Shown here: positions 8,912 to 60,474 of the stretch, piece after piece | Numbering within the stretch: position 1 is the first letter of the stretch | How the letters are laid out: each line of letters opens with the position of its first letter | DNA from: an uncultured Gammaproteobacteria bacterium | GTDB taxonomy: Bacteria; Patescibacteriota; Microgenomatia; Levybacterales; UBA12049 | DNA length: 64,000 bases | NCBI GenBank assembly: GCA_964497535.1 | Contig: CAZCCG010000003.1 | Span: forward strand, 133,499-197,498 | Reading direction: 5' to 3' | Program-made: the position numbers and the translations under genes | The notes under the pieces: generated by a model | The model's input: the letters and a program-made list of their open reading frames with translations, nothing else | Databases searched by the model: none | What the model was told of the DNA's origin: nothing

Positions 8912-9727
8912 CTATTGGATTTCGTAGGAAAGGGAGACGCTGACAGTTATGGTATTTTCTCCGGGATTGAGATTCGTGCTGGTATCGGCAGTTGTATTCT
9001 CAGCCTTCATCGTTGTAGCTCCTTGTGCATATGGGATCTGATTAGAATTTTCATAGATACTGATAATTTTCCCCAAACTCACTCCTGCAGCTTGTGCAGT
9101 TTGTTCTGCTTGCTTTTTCGCATTTTGGATTGCTTGTATCCGCGCTTTTTGTTGGGCGGCTTCCCGTGCCGCATCATCCAGGACAAAATTTGGTCCATAG
9201 ACCTGGTTGGCTCCATCGCCGGTTGCCGTATCAAGAGCCTTATTTGCCAAATCTACGGTTTTTGCTTTTACTTGTATTGAGGTATTTCCAGTATAGCCAA
9301 TAATTTGGGTGGGTTTATTCGCTCCGGGTCCATCCAGTGGTGTGATACCACGATCATTATACTGAGGGGTAATGCTGAAGTTGGATGTCTGGATATCTTT
9401 TTCCAAAATTCCAAGGCTGATTAAATCCTGAGTTACTTTATTGACAATGATATTCATTTGATCTTTTACATCTTGTTCTGAGGTACCAGTTTTAGTCACA
9501 TTGATAGAAATACTTGCTTCTGTTGGCGTTGCGGTAGCTTTACCGGTACCAGTAACCGTAAAAAGGTTATTGTTATTTGTTTGGATGCTGTTAATAGAAA
9601 ATGGAATCGGTCCGGCAATTTTAAAATACAGAAAGAATCCCACAAAAAGAAATACTGCGGTAAAAAAAGGTATTCTTAAATCTCGCAACATACAATAATA
9701 GTAAGGGATGCTTGAGTATCCTGTCAA
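8912..9727 (-). CDS. SIMPL/DUF541 domain protein (periplasmic, membrane-anchored)
   Basis: N-terminal TM helix followed by the DUF541-type pattern TVTGTGKATATPTEASISINV ... ITPQYN. The true start may be an internal Met. Confidence 0.65.
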   Translation of the reverse strand: MTGYSSIPYYYCMLRDLRIPFFTAVFLFVGFFLYFKIAGPIPFSINSIQTNNNNLFTVTGTGKATATPTEASISINVTKTGTSEQDVKDQMNIIVNKVTQDLISLGILEKDIQTSNFSITPQYNDRGITPLDGPGANKPTQIIGYTGNTSIQVKAKTVDLANKALDTATGDGANQVYGPNFVLDDAAREAAQQKARIQAIQNAKKQAEQTAQAAGVSLGKIISIYENSNQIPYAQGATTMKAENTTADTSTNLNPGENTITVSVSLSYEIQ

Positions 9728-10905
9728 GATTGAGGGGTAAGCAGTATGCCTGAGCCCGGTTGTACGCGGATTTTTCCGTTCGAGTATACTGTAGCAGAGT
9801 TTATAACTACTTTTGTTATTTTCCCCTGTACTTTCCAGCCCTCAAATGGGGTCCATTTGCATTTCGTATAAAGATTTTCCTTCTTCAGTTCATACGTAGT
9901 ATCCATATCGATTTCGATATATGTGTTTTCCTGTTTCGGTACTTTAAAACATTCTTGGGGACCGTTATGGCACAGCCTTATAACATCTTCTAGAGTCAGG
10001 CGTTTTTGGGAAACGGCAGTCAAAAGGAGTGGAAGAGTTGTCTCAAGCCCCGGTACTCCAAATGGAATTGGAGCGGGCGGGTCCTGCCGCTCGTCACCCC
10101 CAACCCACGTCCTCACATTCATTGCGGGCGCTGGTTGAAGGTCCCCCACTCGCGTCACCCGCCCTTCAATGAGTGCTTTTCCAAGCTTTTCCTCAGTTGT
10201 ATGAGGGGCATGGTCTGATTCTACACAGTCAATATATGATAGGTTATTCCAGAGATAATCCACATCTTTCTGGGATTTTAAATACGGTTTCATTTTGCCA
10301 AATGGTCCTAATTTTCGCCCATCTGTTGCTGTTAAAAAGAGATGGTGAGGAGTAACGCCGCAGGTTACGCTTAATCCCTGCCCTTTTGCCTGTTTGATCT
10401 GTTCCAAATCTGATTGTGTTGAGATGTGGCAAAAGTGAATTTTTTGTCCAATCTGTTTGCTCAGTTGTATGCAAAAAGCGACTGCATCGTCTTCTGCATG
10501 AAGAAGAACCGGTTTGTGCGGATTTGCTTGGTGCCAGGCAGTAAAAATTTTTTTAAGCTGTGTTTTATCGATCAAAAAGTTGCCGGTGGTTTCATTTAAA
10601 TATACTTTTAGTCCAAACACAGATGGAGCTACTTTTTTAAACTCTATCAAATTATCTCCTAATGTCCCAAAATAGAAACCAATATTACAAACTATTTGTT
10701 TTTGTGCAAGAGAGATTTTTTCATCAAGCCGTTTCTGGGTTGTAATAGGAATAGTATTATTTGGCATATCCAAAACTGTTGTGAATCCTCCGGCTACTGC
10801 TGCACAGGTACCGGTATAGAAATCTTCTTTCTGCTCTTGTCCGGGAGTCCGCAAATGTACATGAGGATCAATAAGGCCTGGAAGTTTTAGTATGTTCATA
10901 CCCAT
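9724..10905 (-). CDS. pyrC: dihydroorotase (cyclic amidohydrolase)
   Basis: Metal-binding start LIDPHVHLRTPG and later HAED/DHAPH motifs are present. It is co-linear with pyrB, carA and carB. Confidence 0.8.
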   Translation of the reverse strand: MGMNILKLPGLIDPHVHLRTPGQEQKEDFYTGTCAAVAGGFTTVLDMPNNTIPITTQKRLDEKISLAQKQIVCNIGFYFGTLGDNLIEFKKVAPSVFGLKVYLNETTGNFLIDKTQLKKIFTAWHQANPHKPVLLHAEDDAVAFCIQLSKQIGQKIHFCHISTQSDLEQIKQAKGQGLSVTCGVTPHHLFLTATDGRKLGPFGKMKPYLKSQKDVDYLWNNLSYIDCVESDHAPHTTEEKLGKALIEGRVTRVGDLQPAPAMNVRTWVGGDERQDPPAPIPFGVPGLETTLPLLLTAVSQKRLTLEDVIRLCHNGPQECFKVPKQENTYIEIDMDTTYELKKENLYTKCKWTPFEGWKVQGKITKVVINSATVYSNGKIRVQPGSGILLTPQS

Positions 10906-13900
10906 TGTAGTTTGTAATCTTGCCAGGAACGGATATGCAGATCTTTCAACGATTTATGAGTAATTGCTTCTATGAATAATTCTGCTTTTTTTAAATCTGT
11001 AAATAGTTGAATGTTGTAGTCTGTTGCTGCACGGCGAATCTGATAATCATCATTAATATCTTTTTTATACCCTCGGTCTACAATATTAATGGCCAGGTCT
11101 ACTTTTCCTGTTTGGAAAATGGTGAGAGTATTGGGAGAGTGTTTCTCATGAATTTTGTAGAGTTTCTTTGTCTTAATTCCCTGTTTGTGCAGAAATTGAG
11201 AGGTATTTTCCGTACCATAGAGTGGAAGGTTTAATGACAATAGTTTTTTTACACTTTCTAAAAAAAGTATTTTATTTGTGTCACCACCGAGGCTGATAAA
11301 TATTCCTTTTTGAGGTATTTTTGCTCCTACCGATAGTTCTGCCTTGAGAAATGCTTCTTCCACATCGTCCCCAAAGCATGCTACCTCACCCGTTGAGGCC
11401 ATTTCCACATCAAGTACCGGATCTGCTCCCGAAAGTCTGGCAAATGAAAACTGAGCTACTTTTGTAGCAACATAGTCATAATCCAAAAAGTTTCTGGGTA
11501 CTTCAGCTACCTCTTTTTTGAAAAATGCATCAGTTGCAAGCTTTATCATATCAATCCCTGTTACTTTTGAAATGAAAGGAAAGGTGCGAGAAGAACGCAA
11601 ATTAATTTCTATAACCATAATTTCATTGTCTTTTGACAGAAGTTGCATATTAAACGGTCCGGTGATTTCCAGTGCTTTTGCGATGCTATAGGTAATCTTT
11701 TTGATTTTCCGAAGTGTATCCAAATAGAGTTTTTGTGCGGGTAGAACAATCGATGCATCTCCTGAATGGACTCCCGCATTTTCTATATGTTCTGAAACAA
11801 TATAGGTAAGCACCGCGCCGTTTTTCGCAACACTGTCAACTTCCAGTTCTTTTGCGTTTTCAATAAATTTAGAAACGGTTATAGGATATTCATCAGATAT
11901 ATGGGCAGTTGCGTGTACATATTGTTGCAGGTCATCATTGGTATTACATATTTTCATATAACTGCCCGATAATACAAAAGATGGACGAGTAAGTACGGGA
12001 TATCCTACCTCTTGTGCAAATGAAATTGCGTCCTCGATTGTTGAGAATTTATTCCATGGAGGCTGTTGAATATTGAGGCTGTCAAGCAGTGAGGAAAATT
12101 TGCTTCGGTCCTCTGCCCGATCGATATTGGCCGGATCAGTCCCCACAATTTTAAATCCATATGCTTTCAGTGCTTTTGCGCGATTATTGGGAGTTTGTCC
12201 CCCTACCGATACAATTACTCCATCCGGTTGTTCAAATTCATAAATGTCAGCGATGCGTTCGAACGTAAGCTCTTCAAAATACAGTCTGTCTGCAATATCA
12301 TAATCGGTTGAAACAGTTTCGGGATTACAGTTAATCGTAATCGATTTTTTTCCATAGTCTTTTAAAGCCATAATGGTTCGTACACTGGTCCAATCAAATT
12401 CTACCGATGAACCGATTCGATAGGGACCGGATCCCAGAACAATGACCCCTACGTTCCCAAGCTTTTTTATATCATTATGGCTTCCGTTATAGGTCAGGTA
12501 TAAATAATTTGTTTTTGCGGGGAATTCCCCTGCTAATGTGTCTATTTGAAAAACAGAAGGAAGGATGTCATAGTCTTTGCGTAGCTTTCTTACTTCCAGT
12601 CCTGTTTTTCCGATAAGAATACCGATTCTTTTATCCGAAAATCCGTTTTGTTTGAGAGTAAGTAACAATTCTTTTGAGACGGCGTGGCTCTTTTGCGATT
12701 GTTTTAACAGTGACTGTTCTAAATCGACTATGTTTTTAATCCTGAATAAAAACCAGGGATCAATTCCTGTCAAGTGGTACGCTTCCTCAATTGACATCTC
12801 ATTATAAAATGCATGTGATATGGCAAATATACGGTTTGGGGTGGGATGTTTGAGAAGAGTTGAAATATTTGCAGATGATAATTTGCCGGTATCAAAAAGT
12901 GTCTCATTTACTGCTCCTTCAAAATCCAAATCGAGCATTCGGATGGCTTTTTGATATGCTTCCTCGAAGGTACGCCCGATACCCATTACTTCCCCCACTG
13001 ATTTCATACTGCTTCCTATCACCTCTTCTGCTCCTTTAAATTTGTCAATATCCCACCGGGGAATTTTAACTGTTATATAGTCAAGTGCCGGTTCAAAACA
13101 AAATTGAGTTGCCTGGGTTACTTTATTTTGAAGTTGCGTCAGCGTATATCCCAGGGCAAGTTTGGCCGCCACATAGGCAAGCGGATAGCCCGTGGCTTTA
13201 CTGGCAAGCGCTGAGCTTCGCGAAAGCCTGGCATTCATTTCAATGACATAATAGTCAAAGGTTTTTTTACCGGCTTTAACACCTGGATGAGGGTTGAGAG
13301 CAAATTGTACATTACACTCGCCTACTACTCCGAGACTTCTCACAATTTTTATGGCTGCATCGCGAAGCGAGTGATATTCAAAATTGGTAAGGGTTTGACT
13401 GGGTGCTACTACAATAGATTCTCCGGTATGTATTCCCAATGGATCCATATTTTCCATATTACATACCGTGATACAATTATCGGCGCTGTCCCGAACAACT
13501 TCATATTCAATCTCTTTGAAATGATGTAAGTATTGTTCCACTAAAATTTGTGAGACAAAAGAAAACGCATGTGATGCAATTGAAACAAGTTCTTTTTCCG
13601 AAGCTGCAATTCCACTCCCCTGCCCGCCCAAAGCAAATCCTGCTCGAAGCATAACAGGATATCCGATTGACTGTGCAATCTTTTTTGCCTCTCCTACATT
13701 TTTTGCGGTTTTGCTTAAGGGTGTTGGAATAGTCAGTGTATGAAGATGCTGGGCGAATTCTTTCCGGTCTTCTGTGAGTTGAATTGTCTCAACAGGAGTT
13801 CCTAATACTTTCACATTATTTTTTTTCAATATGCCCTTTTTATACAGTTCCAGTCCGCAGTTGAGTGCTGTTTGGCCGCCAAATGACAGGAAGACTCCAT

Positions 13901-14150
13901 CTGGTTTTTCTTTTTCTATGACTTTTTCTACAAAATAGACATTGACAGGCAGAAAATAGACAATATCTGCCATAAATTTGGATGTTTGGACCGTTGCAAT
14001 ATTGGGGTTTACCAGTACTGTCTGGATTCCTTCTTCTTTCAGAGCTTTGATTGCCTGAGAGCCTGAGTAATCAAATTCTCCTGCTTCCCCAATCTTTAAA
14101 GCTCCACTTCCCAATACAAGAATTTTTTTATATTTTGAATTATGAATCAT
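10896..14150 (-). CDS. carB: carbamoyl-phosphate synthase large subunit
   Basis: 1084 aa with two ATP-grasp halves and an MGS-like C-terminus. Diagnostic segments such as ECNVQFALNP and PRWDIDKF are present. Confidence 0.95.
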   Translation of the reverse strand: MIHNSKYKKILVLGSGALKIGEAGEFDYSGSQAIKALKEEGIQTVLVNPNIATVQTSKFMADIVYFLPVNVYFVEKVIEKEKPDGVFLSFGGQTALNCGLELYKKGILKKNNVKVLGTPVETIQLTEDRKEFAQHLHTLTIPTPLSKTAKNVGEAKKIAQSIGYPVMLRAGFALGGQGSGIAASEKELVSIASHAFSFVSQILVEQYLHHFKEIEYEVVRDSADNCITVCNMENMDPLGIHTGESIVVAPSQTLTNFEYHSLRDAAIKIVRSLGVVGECNVQFALNPHPGVKAGKKTFDYYVIEMNARLSRSSALASKATGYPLAYVAAKLALGYTLTQLQNKVTQATQFCFEPALDYITVKIPRWDIDKFKGAEEVIGSSMKSVGEVMGIGRTFEEAYQKAIRMLDLDFEGAVNETLFDTGKLSSANISTLLKHPTPNRIFAISHAFYNEMSIEEAYHLTGIDPWFLFRIKNIVDLEQSLLKQSQKSHAVSKELLLTLKQNGFSDKRIGILIGKTGLEVRKLRKDYDILPSVFQIDTLAGEFPAKTNYLYLTYNGSHNDIKKLGNVGVIVLGSGPYRIGSSVEFDWTSVRTIMALKDYGKKSITINCNPETVSTDYDIADRLYFEELTFERIADIYEFEQPDGVIVSVGGQTPNNRAKALKAYGFKIVGTDPANIDRAEDRSKFSSLLDSLNIQQPPWNKFSTIEDAISFAQEVGYPVLTRPSFVLSGSYMKICNTNDDLQQYVHATAHISDEYPITVSKFIENAKELEVDSVAKNGAVLTYIVSEHIENAGVHSGDASIVLPAQKLYLDTLRKIKKITYSIAKALEITGPFNMQLLSKDNEIMVIEINLRSSRTFPFISKVTGIDMIKLATDAFFKKEVAEVPRNFLDYDYVATKVAQFSFARLSGADPVLDVEMASTGEVACFGDDVEEAFLKAELSVGAKIPQKGIFISLGGDTNKILFLESVKKLLSLNLPLYGTENTSQFLHKQGIKTKKLYKIHEKHSPNTLTIFQTGKVDLAINIVDRGYKKDINDDYQIRRAATDYNIQLFTDLKKAELFIEAITHKSLKDLHIRSWQDYKLQWV

Positions 14151-14557
14151 GAGTTATGAATAAAGGTTTTAGATTTTTTAATTAAGCCATTTAAAAGTTT
14201 GCTAACGACAATAGTTTTCTCCTCTGAGTTTTTAAAGATCACGTCTGAAATATAATGAATATCTTTTGCAATTAATAGTTGATTTTGGACTTCTGTTAAA
14301 GAACCTAACGCCATTGAATAAAATTGAATTTTTTCTTTATAAGAGGTTCTGCTAAAGCCTTCAGCTATATTGGACGTGATAGAGACAGCAGCTCTTCTTA
14401 ATTGGTTCGTTAATCCAAACTGTTCATTTTTGGGAAATTCGGATGTCAATTTATAAATTTCTAATACAAGCATATGCCCTTCTTTCCAAGCATTTAAATC
14501 TTTAAATGATTTTATCGCTGTGTCCATAATTCATAATTCTTACTTCATAATTCATTT
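14135..14557 (-). mobile_element. inverted-repeat-flanked cassette carrying a four-helix-bundle gene, inserted between carA and carB
   Basis: Arms GAATTATGAA-type (14525-14557) and TTCATAAYTCAT-type (14135-14166) are in inverted orientation. ATTCATAACTCA/ATTCATAATTCA is a tandem duplicate at the carB start. Confidence 0.45.
14147..14527 (-). CDS. four-helix-bundle protein (23S rRNA intervening-sequence protein family, TIGR02436-like)
   Basis: 126 aa, all-helical, with the NIAEGFSR motif typical of this family. It sits between carA and carB. Confidence 0.75.
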   Translation of the reverse strand: MDTAIKSFKDLNAWKEGHMLVLEIYKLTSEFPKNEQFGLTNQLRRAAVSITSNIAEGFSRTSYKEKIQFYSMALGSLTEVQNQLLIAKDIHYISDVIFKNSEEKTIVVSKLLNGLIKKSKTFIHNS

Positions 14558-15576
14558 AGGAAGTAATCAAATATCCATTCCGCATCGGTTGGTCCCGGGG
14601 TGGCTTCCGGATGAAATTGTACAGACATAAGTGGTAATTTTTTATGTTTTATTCCTTCATTTGTATTGTCATTGGCATTGGTAAACCATGCTTCGAATCC
14701 CGAAGGAATTGTATCAACCGCAAATCCATGATTTTGAGTAGTAATAAAACAACGCTTGGAATTTGTCATCAGACAGGGTTGGTTTTGACTGCGATGTCCG
14801 TATTTGAGTTTTTTAGTATCACCACCGGCTGCAAGGGTGAGTAATTGATGTCCGAGACAAATCCCCAATATAGGAATATTTTTATGCAGTGCTTTTTGGA
14901 TGATTTTGACTGTTGCTGTTGCAAATTTAGGGTCACCGGGGCCATTGGAAATAAGCAAACCGTCAAATGATACGTTATCTGCAAATGGGTCATAGTTCCA
15001 TGGAACGGTAATAACAGTAACTCCCCGTTTTAGCAAACTATTTTCAATATTTCGTTTTGCACCGCAATCAATGAGTGCAATTTTTTTTCCTCCGTGTCCT
15101 TTTTTCAATACTTTCTTTGTTGAGACTTGCGAGACGAGATTGTCACCGTTAGGATCATACCAGGGAATATCCTGATCAAATATAATTTTCCCCAGCATTG
15201 TTCCTTTATCTCGTATTTTTTGAGTAAGAAGTCGTGTGTCTTTTATTTGGATCAGTGGAATATGTTCATCTCTAAACCATTGAGCGAGCGTTTTTTGGCT
15301 TTGGAAATGCGAGGGGGTATCGATATAGTCACTTACAATCAGACCCGATACCATAATATGATCTGACTCCCAAAATATTTTCTCCGGTACTCCGTAGTTT
15401 CCAATCAGAGGATAGGTAAGAGTCAATATCTGTCCTTTATATGATGGATCAGTAAGGCTTTCGGGATATCCCATCATCCCGGTCGAAAAAACAACTTCTC
15501 CAGCTTTTCCCGTAGTATCACCAAATGACTGTGCTTCAAATTCCGATTTATCCTCAAGTATTAGCTTAGCTCTCAT
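14545..15576 (-). CDS. carA: carbamoyl-phosphate synthase small subunit (glutamine amidotransferase)
   Basis: N-terminal CPSase small-chain domain is present. The GATase triad region reads GICLGHQLL ... HGFAV. Confidence 0.9.
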   Translation of the reverse strand: MRAKLILEDKSEFEAQSFGDTTGKAGEVVFSTGMMGYPESLTDPSYKGQILTLTYPLIGNYGVPEKIFWESDHIMVSGLIVSDYIDTPSHFQSQKTLAQWFRDEHIPLIQIKDTRLLTQKIRDKGTMLGKIIFDQDIPWYDPNGDNLVSQVSTKKVLKKGHGGKKIALIDCGAKRNIENSLLKRGVTVITVPWNYDPFADNVSFDGLLISNGPGDPKFATATVKIIQKALHKNIPILGICLGHQLLTLAAGGDTKKLKYGHRSQNQPCLMTNSKRCFITTQNHGFAVDTIPSGFEAWFTNANDNTNEGIKHKKLPLMSVQFHPEATPGPTDAEWIFDYFLNEL

Positions 15577-15633
15577 ATCTAATTTTCAATTTAAAATTTT
15601 AAATTTTCAATGAAATCCCAATATTCAATTTGA

Positions 15634-15687: not shown

Positions 15688-16650
15688 TTATAGTTTTCCA
15701 AGTACCAACCCCAGGAGGGCCATTCTTACATACATGCCGTTTTGTACTTGTGACCGTAGATATACAGCTCGTGGATCTCCATCTATTTCTGTATGAATTT
15801 CGTCAATACGGGGAAGAGCATGCATAATAATGCTCCTCTTTTTCATATGAGAGGCAAGATTGTTATCAACTACATATTTCCCTTTTACTTTATTGTAGAG
15901 ATCTACCGGCATAAATTCTTTCTTCACGCGAGTTACATATAATACATCAGTATCTCCAATCACAGAATGAATATCTGAATCTTGATTAAAGCTCACTTTT
16001 CTATCTGTTAAATATCTTTTTGTCTCGGCATTGAGAGACACTTCTGGAGGAGAAATAAAACTCATTGTAATATTTGGAAAAAGAGTTAGTACTTTTGCAA
16101 GCGAATTGACTGGACGATAATGGGCAAGTTCTCCCAAGAATGTAATATGGAGATTTTCTAATTTTCCTAATTCTTCTTGGATAGTATAGAGGTCATACAA
16201 TGCCTGTGTTGGGTGTTCACCAATTCCCTCGCCGGCATTGATAATAGGGATAGTTGTAACGCGGGCCGCACGTTGCATTGATCCGAGTTCCGGATGACGC
16301 ATAACAATAACATCACTATATGCACTAAAGGTTTGTATTGTATCTTCAAGTGTCTCCCCTTTTGCTACTGAAGATTGTGCCATTGCTTGCAGCGGGATAA
16401 ATCCTCCTCCGAGTCTCTGCATGCCGGCTACAAACGATCCAAAGGTTCTGCTGCTGGGTTCAAAAAAAAGAGCAGCCATTATTTTATTCTTAAGTAGGTC
16501 GGTTCCTCCTTTTTGAAGGACGAGGTGTTTTATTTCTTCTGCCTTTTGGAGGACGAGTTGCAGGTCTTGTTTTGAAAATTGTTCTGAGGATAGAATATCT
16601 TTACCGTTAAAATTTCCGTTTATCTTGTCAGATCCAATGGGTGTAGTCAT
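15688..16650 (-). CDS. pyrB: aspartate carbamoyltransferase catalytic subunit
   Basis: The carbamoyl-phosphate-binding motif FFEPSSRTFGSF and the HPxQ region are present. I chose the ATG at 16650; the ORF track starts at a GTG at 16665. Confidence 0.9.
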   Translation of the reverse strand: MTTPIGSDKINGNFNGKDILSSEQFSKQDLQLVLQKAEEIKHLVLQKGGTDLLKNKIMAALFFEPSSRTFGSFVAGMQRLGGGFIPLQAMAQSSVAKGETLEDTIQTFSAYSDVIVMRHPELGSMQRAARVTTIPIINAGEGIGEHPTQALYDLYTIQEELGKLENLHITFLGELAHYRPVNSLAKVLTLFPNITMSFISPPEVSLNAETKRYLTDRKVSFNQDSDIHSVIGDTDVLYVTRVKKEFMPVDLYNKVKGKYVVDNNLASHMKKRSIIMHALPRIDEIHTEIDGDPRAVYLRSQVQNGMYVRMALLGLVLGKL

Positions 16651-16728
16651 AAAAAAACAGAGCACGTGCGGAACTGGCTCTGAGGACTTAGTTTACAGAA
16701 AAATATTATATGATGTCAAGCATTCAAA

Positions 16729-23989: not shown

Positions 23990-24065
23990 GAATAATGAAT
24001 CATGAAGTATGAATTATGGTGACTAAAAATATATTCCTTTATTCATAACTCATAACTCTTAATTC
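23990..24065. repeat. gene-less copy of the carA/carB cassette inverted repeats (hairpin-forming, MITE-like) between gyrB and ppa
   Basis: Arms GAATAATGAATCATGAAGTATGAATTATGG and TTATTCATAACTCATAACTCTTAATTC match the arms flanking the four-helix-bundle gene at 14.1-14.6 kb. Confidence 0.45.
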
Positions 24066-50799: not shown

Positions 50800-51326
50800 G
50801 AAAAATTAAAGAATTCAAGATGAGTAATTTACACGTGCAACGTGGTTTTACATTGATTGAGCTTATTATAGTTACTGCTATCCTCGGAATATTGACTGCA
50901 ATAGTTATTGCAAGTCTTGATCCGCCAGCACAATATGCAAAAACCCAAGACGGCCGAAGAAAATCTGATCTTTCCCAAATACAAAGAGCTTTGGAATCCT
51001 ATTATCAGGACCATAATTACTATCCCGATAGTACCGCTAATTACCAGATTTCCGGTGCTGCCTGGGGTTCATCCGGTTTGGCTCCTTATATGACAAAAGT
51101 GCCTATAGATGCGAATCCTACCAAAACATATGCATATAAGTCGAGTGGGCATAATGGACAGTCATATTGGATCTATGTTAGTCTAGATAGAGGCGGTAAA
51201 GATCCTCAAGCATGTAATAGCGGTAATCTGTGCGCAAATGCTACCGGGATTTCTTGTGATAGAAGTGGTAGCCTTGCAAATAATATCTGTAATTACGGCG
51301 TTAGCAGTCCTGATCAATCACCATGA
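50790..51326 (+). CDS. type IV pilin / pseudopilin (GspG-like)
   Basis: Leader ending QRG, then FTLIELIIVTAILGILTA. Alternative start at 50820. Confidence 0.8.
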   Translation: MLMRKIKEFKMSNLHVQRGFTLIELIIVTAILGILTAIVIASLDPPAQYAKTQDGRRKSDLSQIQRALESYYQDHNYYPDSTANYQISGAAWGSSGLAPYMTKVPIDANPTKTYAYKSSGHNGQSYWIYVSLDRGGKDPQACNSGNLCANATGISCDRSGSLANNICNYGVSSPDQSP

Positions 51327-51823
51327 GGCGAATTTCAAAATTCAAAATTCAAAATTCAAAATTCACAGGTGGATTTACTCTTATTGAACTTCTGATTGTG
51401 GTCGCAATTATTGGAGTACTTGCTACTCTTCTTATGGCTAACTTTGTCGGGATTAGGCAACGGGCACGTGATGTACAAAGGAAGTCTGAAATTCAACAAA
51501 TACGTTCGGCATTGGAGTTGTACCGGGCAGACCAGGGTGCCTATCCCATCAATGCAACAGATTTGTATACTGGCGGAGTATGTAATGCTACTTTTTCAAG
51601 TGGATCGACGGTGTATATGAAAAAAGTTCCCTGTGATCCCTTAGGTAATGGAATGACTTTCTACGGTGGATATTACTTATATTCTTCAGATGGGAGTCAA
51701 TATACGCTGCAAGCATGTCTGGAGAATGCAAATGATAATGATACCAATGATACCGCTACGCCTGCCCTCCCCGGCCTAGGAGCATGTGCCTCAAGTAAAT
51801 ATTTCACGCTCACTAATCCATGA
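51323..51823 (+). CDS. type IV pilin / pseudopilin (GspG-like) with repeat-containing leader
   Basis: MRRISKFKIQNSKFTGG|FTLIELLIVVAIIGVLA. Confidence 0.8.
   Translation: MRRISKFKIQNSKFTGGFTLIELLIVVAIIGVLATLLMANFVGIRQRARDVQRKSEIQQIRSALELYRADQGAYPINATDLYTGGVCNATFSSGSTVYMKKVPCDPLGNGMTFYGGYYLYSSDGSQYTLQACLENANDNDTNDTATPALPGLGACASSKYFTLTNP
51334..51361 (+). repeat. tandem heptanucleotide repeat (TTCAAAA)x4 within pilin leader codons
   Basis: Four perfect tandem 7-nt units are seen directly. The unit length is not a multiple of 3. Confidence 0.85.
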
Positions 51824-52581: not shown

Positions 52582-53059
52582 TATGATGAGAGGACAATCT
52601 TTATTAGAGGTTTTGGTTGCACTCGGGGTATCCCTTACCGTTTTGAGTGTCGTGGTACTTGCGGTTATTACTTCCTTGCAAAACAATAATGCGAGCAAAA
52701 ATCAGAATATGGCCACTCAGTATTCGCAGGAGGCAATGGAACTATTACGAAGCAGCAGAGATTCCAACTGGACAGTATTTAGTGGATTAGATGGGAATTA
52801 TTGTCTTTCCAAGGGTTCAACCACGCTTGATGCAAATGGAAGCTCATGTTCGACTGCCTGTGCAAAAAATATTGATAATTTATTTGCAAGAAAAATATGT
52901 GTTACTCCTAATTCATCATATTGTTCTACAGGTAACGCTACTGAGGTACTTGTGACGACTTCCTGGTCAGATTCAAAATGCCAATCTGCCACTGATCTTT
53001 GTCATACGGTAGAGTTAAATTCCTGTTTATCTAGTTATAATAGATTACCAACACCATGA
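52571..53059 (+). CDS. minor pilin-like protein (degenerate prepilin motif)
   Basis: MMRG|QSLLEVLVALGVSL with Glu at +5. Confidence 0.5.
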   Translation: MGINMMRGQSLLEVLVALGVSLTVLSVVVLAVITSLQNNNASKNQNMATQYSQEAMELLRSSRDSNWTVFSGLDGNYCLSKGSTTLDANGSSCSTACAKNIDNLFARKICVTPNSSYCSTGNATEVLVTTSWSDSKCQSATDLCHTVELNSCLSSYNRLPTP

Positions 53060-53649
53060 GAGGAAATTCAAAATACAAAATTCATCTACTCGAACTATTA
53101 AGCAAAGCGTTGCAGGCGAGGAATTCAAAATTCCAAGGTGGATTTACTCTTATCGAATTGCTTGCCGTTATTTTTGTAATTGGTATAGTAGGAGGGGTCG
53201 TTTTCGCAACTACCGTTTCTTTATTGAGAGGAACCAATAAATCCAACGCCCTTACCAATATCCGCCAAAATGGAAACTATGCGGTGACCCAACTGACCAA
53301 AATTCTCCATGATGCAAAAAGAATTAATGATCCACTAACTTCGTCATGTGATGGGTCTGCTCTTACAAAAAAATCCATTACTGTAACAGGGTTTGATAAC
53401 GCACAAACAACAATCAGTTGTTCAACCGGAGCAAACGGTACCATTGCCTCCAACAGTGCTTCCCTGATCAATGCAAATAGTATTCTGGTGACAGCGTGTT
53501 CGATTTCCTGTCAGCAGGTATCGGCAGCAGACATTCCTCGAGTAACTGTTACATTTACTTTGAGTCAGCGGACCACAAATTCGTTATTTGAAAATCAGGC
53601 CAGTTCATCATTTAATGCCACTACGCAGTTGAGGAATGCTAGCCGGTAA
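53056..53649 (+). CDS. minor pilin / pseudopilin
   Basis: Long leader ending NSKFQGG|FTLIELLAVIFVIGIV. The leader DNA carries an imperfect AAATTCAAAA repeat. Confidence 0.65.
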   Translation: MRGNSKYKIHLLELLSKALQARNSKFQGGFTLIELLAVIFVIGIVGGVVFATTVSLLRGTNKSNALTNIRQNGNYAVTQLTKILHDAKRINDPLTSSCDGSALTKKSITVTGFDNAQTTISCSTGANGTIASNSASLINANSILVTACSISCQQVSAADIPRVTVTFTLSQRTTNSLFENQASSSFNATTQLRNASR

Positions 53650-59374: not shown

Positions 59375-59483
59375 AGTAGGTTCTATTTTACCTTATTTTC
59401 ACAGAGGTTGCAATACAGGCTGGGCTTGGGATCTACTTCTTGCGTCTTGAGTCTAATTCAAAATTTAAAATGTAAAGGTCAAA

Positions 59484-59550: not shown

Positions 59551-60474
59551 ATGAAAACAACAGAGTTTCACAAGATTATTTGGAATTACTATGAGATAAA
59601 TCGACGAAAGTTACCGTGGAGAGAAACGAGTGATCCTTACAAAATCTTTATTTCCGAAGTGATGCTTCAGCAGACTCAGGTACCGCGGGTTTGGGTGAAA
59701 TATCCTGAGTTTATTCATGCTTTTCCCACTTTTAGGGCATTAGCAAAAGCGCCATTTGAAGCGGTGTTAGGTCAGTGGCAGGGCTTGGGGTACAATCGGC
59801 GGGCGTTGTACCTGCAACAGTCAGCACAGCAGGTTGTAGAGGCATACAATGGGGTTCTTCCATCAGATGAAGTGGCATTGGAGATGCTCCCGGGTATTGG
59901 GCCTGCGACTGCTCGGTCTATTGTGGTGTTTGCCTTCAATAAACCGTTGGTATTTATTGAAACCAACATCCGCCGCGTCTTCATCCACCATTACTTTAGG
60001 GAGGGTCATTCTGAACAAAGTGAAGAATCTCTTGCGAATGCGAGTTCTCAAACAAGCTTAGAGATCCCTTCCTTACCTGCCGGCAGGCAAGGAAGTAAAA
60101 GAGTTCTCGCTAACGCTCGAACAATAGAAGGAGTTGATGACAAACAATTGTTTCCTCTGATTGAACAGACCTTGGATCGCCGCAATCCCCGCGAGTGGTA
60201 CTATGCGTTAATGGATTATGGCTCAATGCTTGGCAAAACAATTGAAAACCCCAACCGGAAGAGCAGGCACTATACCAAACAATCAAAGTTTGAAGGCTCA
60301 ATCAGGCAGGTCCGCGGACAAATCCTTAAGTTATTACTTCAGAATAAGACAATGAACCGTCAGGAGTTGGAAACACTCTTCAAAACCGATTCTGTGCGGT
60401 TTAGTAAGGCACTTGGGCAATTGGAGCAAGAAGGATTTATTGTAGGTGATGAAACATTACAACTGAAATCTTAG
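59551..60474 (+). CDS. HhH-GPD family DNA glycosylase (MutY/Nth-like) lacking the 4Fe-4S cysteine cluster, with C-terminal winged-helix-like tail
   Basis: MLQQTQV ... GLGYNRRA ... LPGIGPATA (HhH-GPD) ... YYALMDYGS. No Cx6Cx2Cx5C follows. Confidence 0.7.
   Translation: MKTTEFHKIIWNYYEINRRKLPWRETSDPYKIFISEVMLQQTQVPRVWVKYPEFIHAFPTFRALAKAPFEAVLGQWQGLGYNRRALYLQQSAQQVVEAYNGVLPSDEVALEMLPGIGPATARSIVVFAFNKPLVFIETNIRRVFIHHYFREGHSEQSEESLANASSQTSLEIPSLPAGRQGSKRVLANARTIEGVDDKQLFPLIEQTLDRRNPREWYYALMDYGSMLGKTIENPNRKSRHYTKQSKFEGSIRQVRGQILKLLLQNKTMNRQELETLFKTDSVRFSKALGQLEQEGFIVGDETLQLKS
60068..60095. repeat. 28-bp near-perfect palindrome CTTCCTTACCTGCCGGCAGGCAAGGAAG inside the glycosylase CDS
   Basis: Seen directly. 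It encodes the peptide SLPAGRQGS. Confidence 0.6.

Follow-up and report, generated by a model that had tools for sequence, protein, structure and literature searches.

The S23p proteins, encoded by intervening sequences (IVSs) in bacterial 23S rRNA genes, have to our knowledge had no known function since the early 1990s. Here we describe a gene of this family, coding for a four-helix-bundle (4HB) protein and enclosed by inverted arrays of tandem heptamers, which lies between carA and carB in a 64,000-nt stretch of DNA (hereafter the window; contig CAZCCG010000003.1, positions 133,499 to 197,498) from a Candidatus Levybacteria population of the Candidate Phyla Radiation (CPR; Patescibacteria), the same sequence being contained in the Logan assemblies of SRR9179562/63. 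In the 23S IVS of Coxiella, an S23p open reading frame (ORF) is enclosed by a 28-bp terminal stem that is cut by RNase III, and three to four tandem GACAGAT heptamers, whose copy number varies between strains, precede the ATG (PMC4990558). The 23S rRNA IVSs of Coxiella burnetii and Leptospira (PMC4990558) share several features with our cassette, namely the same protein family in the loop, terminal inverted repeats of about 28-36 nt, three to five tandem heptamers running up to the start codon, a variable heptamer copy number and an ORF in sense orientation to the host transcript (the Azospirillum case, described below, was verified). Unlike these IVSs, the cassette resides in an mRNA between translationally coupled genes and its arms serve as their stop and start codons; moreover, RNase III excision, which defines IVS function, would be expected to harm the carA/carB mRNA.

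A second body of work concerns heptamer repeats, an excess of which has long been noted in cyanobacteria as short tandemly repeated repetitive (STRR) sequences. In Xanthomonas, arrays of the heptamer GGGAATC are strongly enriched and include about 70 convergent inverted pairs, located mostly between co-oriented ORFs and near the upstream gene, with unknown function, and GGGGA(C/T)T heptamer repeats are intergenic in Nostoc (Rehm et al. 2015, PMC4692102). That study treats the repeats as G-quadruplex (G4)-forming simple-sequence repeats and does not mention XCC0516 or its 4HB gene, while 4HB genes inside cas operons have been noted elsewhere (PMC3936711). The 4HB gene family, rRNA IVSs and heptamer repeats are each known separately. 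Except for the Coxiella IVS, we found no literature linking PF05635 genes to heptamer arms, in a search whose incomplete coverage leaves an earlier description possible; a PF05635 ORF within a tandem-heptamer hairpin at operon junctions, with arms that form the stop and start codons of the neighbouring genes, appears to be new, as does the link of this unit to the GGGAATC repeats of Xanthomonas.

The initial annotation of the locus had reported a 126-aa 4HB gene between carA and carB, which is borne out by the ORF list, the PF05635/TIGR02436 profile matches and Pfam, which also assigned carA and carB without ambiguity:

14545-15576, minus strand: carA, carbamoyl-phosphate synthase (CPSase) small subunit (ORF list; Pfam CPSase_sm_chain and GATase)
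14524-14553, minus strand: 5' (left) arm, GAATTAT GAAGTAA GAATTAT GAATTAT plus GG (sequence, repeat search, lag-7 periodicity of the family)
14147-14527, minus strand: 4HB gene, 126 aa, PF05635/TIGR02436 ("23S rRNA IVS protein", S23p) (ORF list, profile matches)
14137-14164, minus strand: 3' (right) arm, TTTATTC ATAACTC ATGATTC ATAATTC (sequence, repeat search, comparison with empty sites)
10896-14150, minus strand: carB, CPSase large subunit (ORF list, Pfam, comparison with empty sites)

Read on the coding strand, each arm consists of about four tandem heptamers of the GAATTAT type, and the two arrays are inverted complements of each other, delimited by repeat search as 14136-14166 and 14524-14554 (31 nt, 81% complementary). 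The last codon and TGA stop of carA (14547-14545) fall within the first two heptamers of the 5' arm, and the last heptamer of the same arm builds the ATG of the 4HB gene (14527-14525), 17 nt downstream of the carA stop. At the opposite end, the TGA of the 4HB gene (14149-14147) and the ATG of carB (14150-14148) overlap as ATGA in the third heptamer of the 3' arm, which also encodes carB codons 2-5 (IHNS) and gives CarB the N-terminus MIHNS; the first and last codons of the 4HB gene are likewise encoded by the arms. The flank sequences, inverted arms, FIHNS/MIHNS near-duplicate and ATGA overlap described earlier were all recovered from the sequence and by repeat search, the near-duplicate (12 nt, 14136-14147 / 14150-14161, spacing 14) corresponding to two consecutive heptamer pairs of the 3' arm. 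Compared with IVSs, the cassette has a terminal stem within the range of about 25-35 bp around the ORF (31-nt arms) and tandem heptamers directly 5' of the ORF, as in Coxiella (four per arm). Its site, however, is between carA and carB and not in an rRNA gene, and an Rfam scan of the window matched neither rRNA nor any other RNA family. We consider this anatomy, together with insertion at the carA/carB junction, very probably correct, and the interpretation of the element as an IVS-type heptamer-hairpin cassette embedded in an operon, with arms that keep the neighbouring genes intact, to be probable (roughly 70%).

To place the insertion, we compared the junction in about 27 Levybacteria-like relatives, drawn from a carA-based scan of species-representative genomes that yielded 80 loci. 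In about 15 of these relatives the junction was empty and tight (typically ...AAAATATGAAAGTAAAAAAAGT...), with the TGA of carA overlapping the ATG of carB, and their CarB begins MK(V/L)KK without IHNS. The earlier description of a discrete inverted-repeat-flanked, IVS-type cassette exactly at the carA|carB junction is supported, and from the comparison with empty sites the carA stop, the carB start and IHNS are supplied by the arms. The 4HB gene was present at the same junction in L005 and L009 (72-75% identical, with heptamer arms GAATCAW and GAATTAR, respectively) and, again with heptamer arms, in the metagenome loci L101 and L136; the flanks in these four cases are related, whereas unrelated ones had been named in the initial annotation as the refuting outcome, and this favours a cassette. 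The closest carA relative, L003, carried an ORF-less heptamer hairpin whose arms hold the carA stop and the carB start (MVHNT...). In L015 (2050-2520), the junction was occupied by a divergent PF05635 gene of another 4HB subfamily (27% identity, E 4e-22) with different, GAAAACT-like arms (GAAAAGT GAAAACT ... / ...CGTTTTT AGCTTTT), and the adjacent carB still starts ATGATTCATAACTCA (MIHNS), a relic start; this locus suggests successive occupation of the site. Given filled, solo and empty states among the relatives, it follows that the carA|carB junction has apparently been occupied more than once. In L010 (1438-1480), the carB start ATGATTAATTCAATAAAT (MINSINN..., sequence ATATGATTAATTCAAT) directly overlaps the carA stop, and this junction looks like the footprint left when a cassette is deleted from the ATGA word of one arm to that of the other, for which the predicted product of ATGA-to-ATGA excision would be GAATTATGATTCATAATTC.

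Inserts without heptamer arms were also found at this position, including a 215-aa S-adenosylmethionine (SAM)-methyltransferase-like ORF in L004 (4029-4678), a 215-aa ORF with no Pfam match in L026 (4071-4732), and several hairpin or miniature inverted-repeat transposable element (MITE)-like inserts of 60-260 nt in L018, L022 and L023. The carA|carB junction is a general insertion hot spot in the Levybacteria-like group.

The initial annotation had further suggested a small mobile cassette that targeted the start of carB and left a duplicate of its target, ATTCATAAYTCA; in this model, a transposon-like element would recognise the site and insert there as in classical transposition. The near-duplicate exists and abuts the carB start, and terminal inverted repeats are present. 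However, the duplicated 12-mer amounts to two repeats within a tandem array of heptamers, and this array also terminates 4HB genes in dozens of unrelated, carB-free contexts; targeting of the carB 5' end is not supported. IHNS, moreover, is element-derived and not a duplicated target, because CarB at empty sites starts MK(V/L)KK and lacks it. As no direct repeats were found outside the arms across 60 loci and no transposase is encoded, we regard classical transposition into carB as very improbable. For an arm-free, empty-site carB beginning ATGATTCATAATTCA, the nearest candidate was L010, which was set aside and is better read as the excision footprint described above.

More trivially, an ordinary small gene could by chance be surrounded by an AT-rich repeat of low complexity, in keeping with a genome of 38% G+C in which slippage readily makes heptamer repeats, and with the variable heptamer copy number between near-identical loci (L122 vs L123, L141 vs L142). 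Against this, the arm 10-mer GAATTATGAA (≤1 mismatch) occurs 33 times in the window compared to 14.1 ± 3.7 expected, with 0 of 100 shuffles reaching 33, and the 4HB ORF shows the highest flank complementarity among the 71 window ORFs of ≥100 aa (16.0; median 7.0, next-best 11.0). The architecture is also shared by 67 of 71 relatives and by GC-rich genomes with quite different heptamers. Motif enrichment and flank complementarity, together with the lag-7 signal, inverted arms and arm-matching permutation reported next, led us to reject a chance origin, the probability of which we consider negligible.

A metagenome scan with three close 4HB proteins returned 80 loci (62-78% identity), of which 71-73 non-identical loci were analysed. 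In nearly all of them, GAA[TG][TC]A[TA] heptamers run into the ATG, and ATGATTC/ATAATTC heptamers span the last codons and the downstream flank. The lag-7 autocorrelation was 0.54 upstream and 0.56 downstream, compared to 0.26 in control flanks, and inverted arms (median 25 nt) were present in 67 of 71 loci, with a mean score of 15.5 relative to 7.0 for shuffled sequences. Arms of the same element fit each other better than arms combined across loci (15.1 vs 12.9 ± 0.32; 0 of 2000 permutations). The heptamer type (GAAT, GTAT, GAAG) tracks the 4HB protein tree, on which the GTATTAT/ATAATAC and the GAAGCAT/ATGCTTC loci cluster, and because of this clustering we conclude that arms and ORF evolve as one unit. 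Flanking gene contexts vary by locus while the geometry is constant: the neighbours are mostly co-oriented with the 4HB gene (53:2 upstream, 59:7 downstream), the stop of the upstream ORF lies inside the 5' arm in 46 of 61 loci, and the first ATG of the downstream ORF is found at -10 to +35 from the 4HB stop in 50 of 68. In 51% and 71% of the arms, each of the three frames contained a stop, compared to about 26% after shuffling, and ATGs were enriched as well.

Two further observations were made in this set. The 3' arms of near-identical loci (L122 and L123, L141 and L142) are exactly one heptamer apart, which shows that the arms still change in length by slippage. Some CPR contigs (L099, L103, L149 and L151) carry several heptamer arrays at successive gene junctions, with the arms of neighbouring elements facing each other; ordinary genes in these contigs seem bracketed by arrays, in a layout that loosely recalls a cassette array. 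A second cargo family in GAAT-type hairpins was considered and rejected, since loops without a 4HB match were mostly arm pairs of neighbouring elements.

The same architecture was found in other phyla. Searching plasmids with tblastn identified 4HB genes in cyanobacteria, Riemerella, Azospirillum and Gemmatirosa, and 14 loci were read. Inverted arms flank the 4HB gene in Picosynechococcus (GGAGATA / TATCTCC, between cmr2 and cmr3), Riemerella (GGTT[TC]AA / AACCTTG), Aulosira and Trichormus (CAGGAGT-type), Nostoc edaphicum (GGGAGTR / TCCCTAC, between nrdB and nrdA), Geminocystis (GGGAAGA / TCCCTTT, between parA- and parB-like genes), Leptolyngbya (inverted heptamers around the ORF) and Stanieria (5' array offset about 60 nt upstream), the arms in these inverted cases being purine-rich and pyrimidine-rich heptamers, respectively. 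In Azospirillum lipoferum, the 4HB ORF lies inside the large-subunit (LSU) rRNA gene, with heptamer arms of 36 nt that are 86% complementary. In Xanthomonas arboricola and X. sacchari (L180-L183, ~1480-1935), homologues of XCC0516, identified with the 2GSC sequence, are located between accB and accC, flanked by GGGAATC GGGAGTG GAGAATC on one side and, immediately before the accC ATG, by the inverted CCCATTC CCCATTC TCGACTC CCTATTC. Collectively, the ORF-in-heptamer-hairpin unit is present at many CPR operon junctions, at Xanthomonas accB/accC, in cyanobacterial cas operons and as true 23S rRNA IVSs.

These Xanthomonas loci overlap with the published repeats, as the 4HB gene XCC0516, between accB and accC, has GGGAATC-type arrays on both sides. 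The GGGAATC repeats of Xanthomonas and the GGGGA(C/T)T repeats of Nostoc resemble the cassette arms in being tandem heptamers, often in convergent inverted pairs between co-oriented ORFs, and most of them would match an ORF-less form of the element; unlike them, the cassette heptamer is AT-rich and cannot form G4. XCC0516 is a clear homologue of the window protein, with a shared RRAxxSIxSNIAEG segment and a similar position between two subunit genes with heptamer arms, although the two proteins are well diverged and differ in heptamer and host phylum.

Membership of the 4HB protein in the S23p family was well supported by profile searches (PF05635, E 2.7e-38, 130.8 bits vs a cut-off of 33.8; TIGR02436, E 2.8e-36, 124 bits vs 24). 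The nearest solved structure is XCC0516 of Xanthomonas (PDB 2GSC; E 1.7e-19 over residues 4-94), and the alignment of QLRRAAVSITSNIAEG to QLRRAAVSIPSNIAEG of 2GSC contains the conserved R-x3-S-x3-N-x2-E segment, a motif described previously (PMC3936711); homology to 2GSC further leads us to infer that the protein may adopt the form of a homopentameric toroid. The protein is basic (pI 9.3), and its coding core is under strong purifying selection family-wide (median ratio of nonsynonymous to synonymous substitution rates, dN/dS, 0.058). Proteins 71-82% identical to it occur in genomes named Parcubacteria, Uhrbacteria and Gribaldobacteria, an identity across groups that equals or exceeds the conservation of CarA within Levybacteria.

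Avd, the accessory protein of diversity-generating retroelements (DGRs), binds reverse transcriptase and nucleic acid. It has a related fold and weak HMM similarity to the 4HB protein, and both are small and basic. Membership in the DGR Avd family was nevertheless rejected, as the Avd profiles scored below cut-off (PF22296, 24.8 vs 40 bits; NF033474, 20.5 vs 80 bits) and the 4HB gene, unlike that of Avd, adjoins carA and carB and not a reverse transcriptase or a template/variable repeat pair.

Further copies of the arms were present in the window, where, besides the over-represented 10-mer, we found one complete hairpin lacking the gene:

23990-24065, plus strand: ORF-less element copy, GAATAAT GAATCAT GAAGTAT GAATTAT GG, 18-nt loop, TTTATTC ATAACTC ATAACTC TTAATTC

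On either side of this copy lie the gyrB stop (24068) and the ppa start (23964); both genes are on the minus strand, and the copy is antisense to them. It shares the 16-mer TTTATTCATAACTCAT and identical inner ends with the cassette, and in about 0.97 Mb of compared sequence TTTATTCATAACTCAT occurred only in the copies of this organism. Its minus-strand, transcribed RNA folded at -21.4 kcal/mol (z = -4.6), compared to -13.3 kcal/mol (z = -1.7) for the plus strand. In the related loci, ORF-less hairpins keeping the inner ends (...ATGG / AAAACC-AT...) were found at no fewer than eight loci, and internal deletions in L085 (1127-1239) and L099 (4985-5146) kept both arms and fused the first codons (..KIKSFT..LN) to the last (NGLIKKSKT..), by analogy resembling the non-autonomous copies of a mobile element. 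The unit also decays into ORF-less hairpins.

MITEs, repetitive extragenic palindromic (REP) elements and Rickettsia palindromic elements (RPEs) are short palindromic repeats dispersed at gene boundaries. The cassette is similar to these in having full-length as well as ORF-less or deleted forms, in being tolerated and in an RPE-like merging into neighbouring coding sequence. It differs in that no target-site duplication and no transposase or REP-associated tyrosine transposase (RAYT) partner were found with it, in that its arms are tandem heptamer arrays and not unique terminal repeats, and in that its cargo is a conserved non-transposase protein. Of the small mobile cassette originally proposed, the discrete cassette stands, and it has a second, ORF-less copy in the window; no transposase or sign of recent transposition was found.

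Several results weigh against the reading of the element as an inverted-arm cassette that moves between junctions. With respect to architecture, the 4HB gene on a Pseudanabaena galeata plasmid (L189, 500-1100), between cas6 and cas4, is flanked by long direct arrays (about 12 copies of AAAAGCT upstream and about 10 of AAAAGCC downstream), contrary to the hairpin rule; in Gemmatirosa the repeats are direct octamers, and in Calothrix only one flank carries an array. Both copies in Nostoc PCC 7120 are exceptions as well, with a 3' array only and a transposase gene upstream of each. With respect to movement, direct repeats outside the arms showed no excess in 60 loci (4.02 vs 3.93 ± 0.12), no transposase was found within the cassette, in which the 4HB gene is the sole ORF, or recurring beside the 80 related loci, and no relatives of the cassette were found in viral contigs or phage records, on which ground phage carriage was rejected. 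An identical 4HB protein (P0089) was in the same context in 10 of 10 places read, which excluded very recent transposition as a candidate, and the insertion is shared with a sister strain (SRR9179560; 1 nt different in 600), offering no direct evidence of movement. Finally, the neighbour-joining tree (carA plus the first 300 carB residues) is star-like with filled and empty lineages interspersed, and it is compatible with one old gain followed by several losses.

Such a history would fit a resident, vertically inherited module. The 4HB protein would then be a host factor, such as an RNA-binding protein that regulates the pyrimidine operon, the heptamer hairpin would be either the operator for this protein or a device for translational coupling, and absences would be losses. 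Strong purifying selection on the protein, a stable position between sister strains and across no fewer than five Levybacteria lineages, the constant context of the identical protein, and folds in which the hairpin sequesters start codons all agree with this explanation, and the star-like host tree is not decisive. However, the unit also lies between accB/accC, cmr2/cmr3, cas6/cas4, nrdB/nrdA, parA/parB and pilin genes, as well as in 23S rRNA, and because it is found between so many unrelated gene pairs it is not pyrimidine-specific. The 4HB proteins found at carA|carB are not monophyletic, that of L015 coming from a different subfamily whose heptamers differ as well; copies without the ORF or with internal deletions are common; and loss would need exact restoration of the ATGA overlap many times. 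We therefore consider a resident module unlikely.

The element might instead act purely as an RNA-level IVS, its arms pairing in the carA-carB transcript and RNase III excising the loop, with tolerance resulting from processing. The 23S IVSs of Coxiella and Azospirillum have a matching architecture, and in Coxiella RNase III has been shown to cleave within the heptamer stem (PMC4990558). When the whole cassette is folded, its arms pair in the minimum-free-energy structure, and arm mini-hairpins folded with z = -3.8 to -5.3, the cassette arms joined through an artificial GAAA loop reaching -20.1 kcal/mol (z = -5.3). The fold of the whole cassette is, however, not unusually stable (z = -1.3), strong protein conservation would be needless for a purely RNA-level element, and an mRNA cleaved in the stem would lose the carA stop and the carB start, which also counts against our own reading in that this step of IVS biology may not apply here. 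Arm mismatches (G:U 35, A:C 52, others 153) gave no sense-strand RNA-stem signature, a further point against an IVS-type hairpin; they are periodic and uncompensated, concentrated at heptamer positions 5 and 7 (34%) compared to 2-3% at positions 1-3, and this pattern looks more like a conserved repeated motif than like selection for pairing. Selection for an RNA stem on the sense strand was rejected on these grounds, and a purely RNA-level element, in part compatible, appears quite unlikely.

For the embedded cassette, we propose a mechanism of several steps, each of the inferred ones (coupled relay, arm pairing, a protein acting on the arrays, spread through the arms) being tentative and, taken singly, nearer to doubtful than to probable. 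A heptamer containing ATGA or TAA, 7 not being a multiple of 3, would present stops and starts in every frame within 21 nt, and insertion at a junction would then end the upstream gene and restart the downstream gene in any phase, making it nearly harmless. At this locus, a relay of carA stop, 17 nt, 4HB gene, ATGA and carB would keep the ancestral ATGA translational coupling of the CPSase subunits. Pairing of the arms in the transcript would keep the starts of the 4HB gene and of carB inaccessible until the stem is opened by ribosomes completing carA, and the stem could also be an RNase III substrate, as in rRNA IVSs, which we rate as possible and not as the main point. The basic, strongly conserved, Avd-related protein would act on the heptamer arrays themselves; the position-wise mismatches, the pI of 9.3 and sequence constraint, and the nucleic-acid-binding relative Avd together point to a protein recognising the repeated motif. 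Spread, the least secure step, would be rare and would more probably involve heptamer arms that recombine or slip at hairpin sites already present than cut-and-paste transposition. We favour this over transposition because target-site duplications and transposase were not found and identical proteins have a stable context, and because the arms are about 25 nt long, ORF-less hairpins share these sites and a single junction holds 4HB genes of different lineages.

A broader and more doubtful possibility, to which we give less credence than to the single steps, is that PF05635 proteins and tandem-heptamer arrays form one two-part system across bacterial phyla, in which a pentameric protein would recognise about 4-5 heptamers at its own hairpin and, in trans, at ORF-less copies. 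If true, this would explain both the heptamer excess (cyanobacterial STRR, Xanthomonas GGGAATC) and the S23p-encoding rRNA IVSs, and the S23p family and the heptamer repeats, two separate puzzles, are suggested to be parts of one thing. It would also define a class of selfish or regulatory elements that spreads without a transposase via repeat arms and is harmless at coupled junctions, in line with a unit that is able to reside in rRNA, or to separate genes for the subunits of essential enzymes (carA/carB, accB/accC, nrdB/nrdA, cmr2/cmr3), without disruption. Binding of the protein to the arrays, arm-relayed translational coupling and arm-mediated movement are testable in culturable hosts such as Xanthomonas and cyanobacteria. 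For annotation, start and stop codons of genes next to such elements may be element-derived, as in CarB MIHNS or the NSKF-type prepilin leaders in the window.

Outside the cassette, the region of carA and carB contains two more genes on the same strand:

15688-16665, minus strand: pyrB (ORF list)
9724-10905, minus strand: dihydroorotase-like gene (ORF list)

Other heptamer arrays were also observed in the window. The (AAAATTC)n arrays at 51323-51370 and 53056-53090 (plus strand) code for the leader peptides of two prepilin-like genes (G|GFTLIELL...), with the leader sequences MRRISKFKIQNSKFTG... and MRGNSKYKIH...NSKFQG...; judged by their sequence, these look like right-arm-type arrays absorbed into cleavable leaders, and slippage in the array of about five copies at 51329-51368 could shift the reading frame. 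Short period-7 runs, each a possible single-arm relic, occur at 15587-15611 (GAAAATT TAAAATT TTAAATT), just upstream of the carA start, and at 59455-59476 (AATTCAAAATTTAAAATG), upstream of an ORF at 59551.

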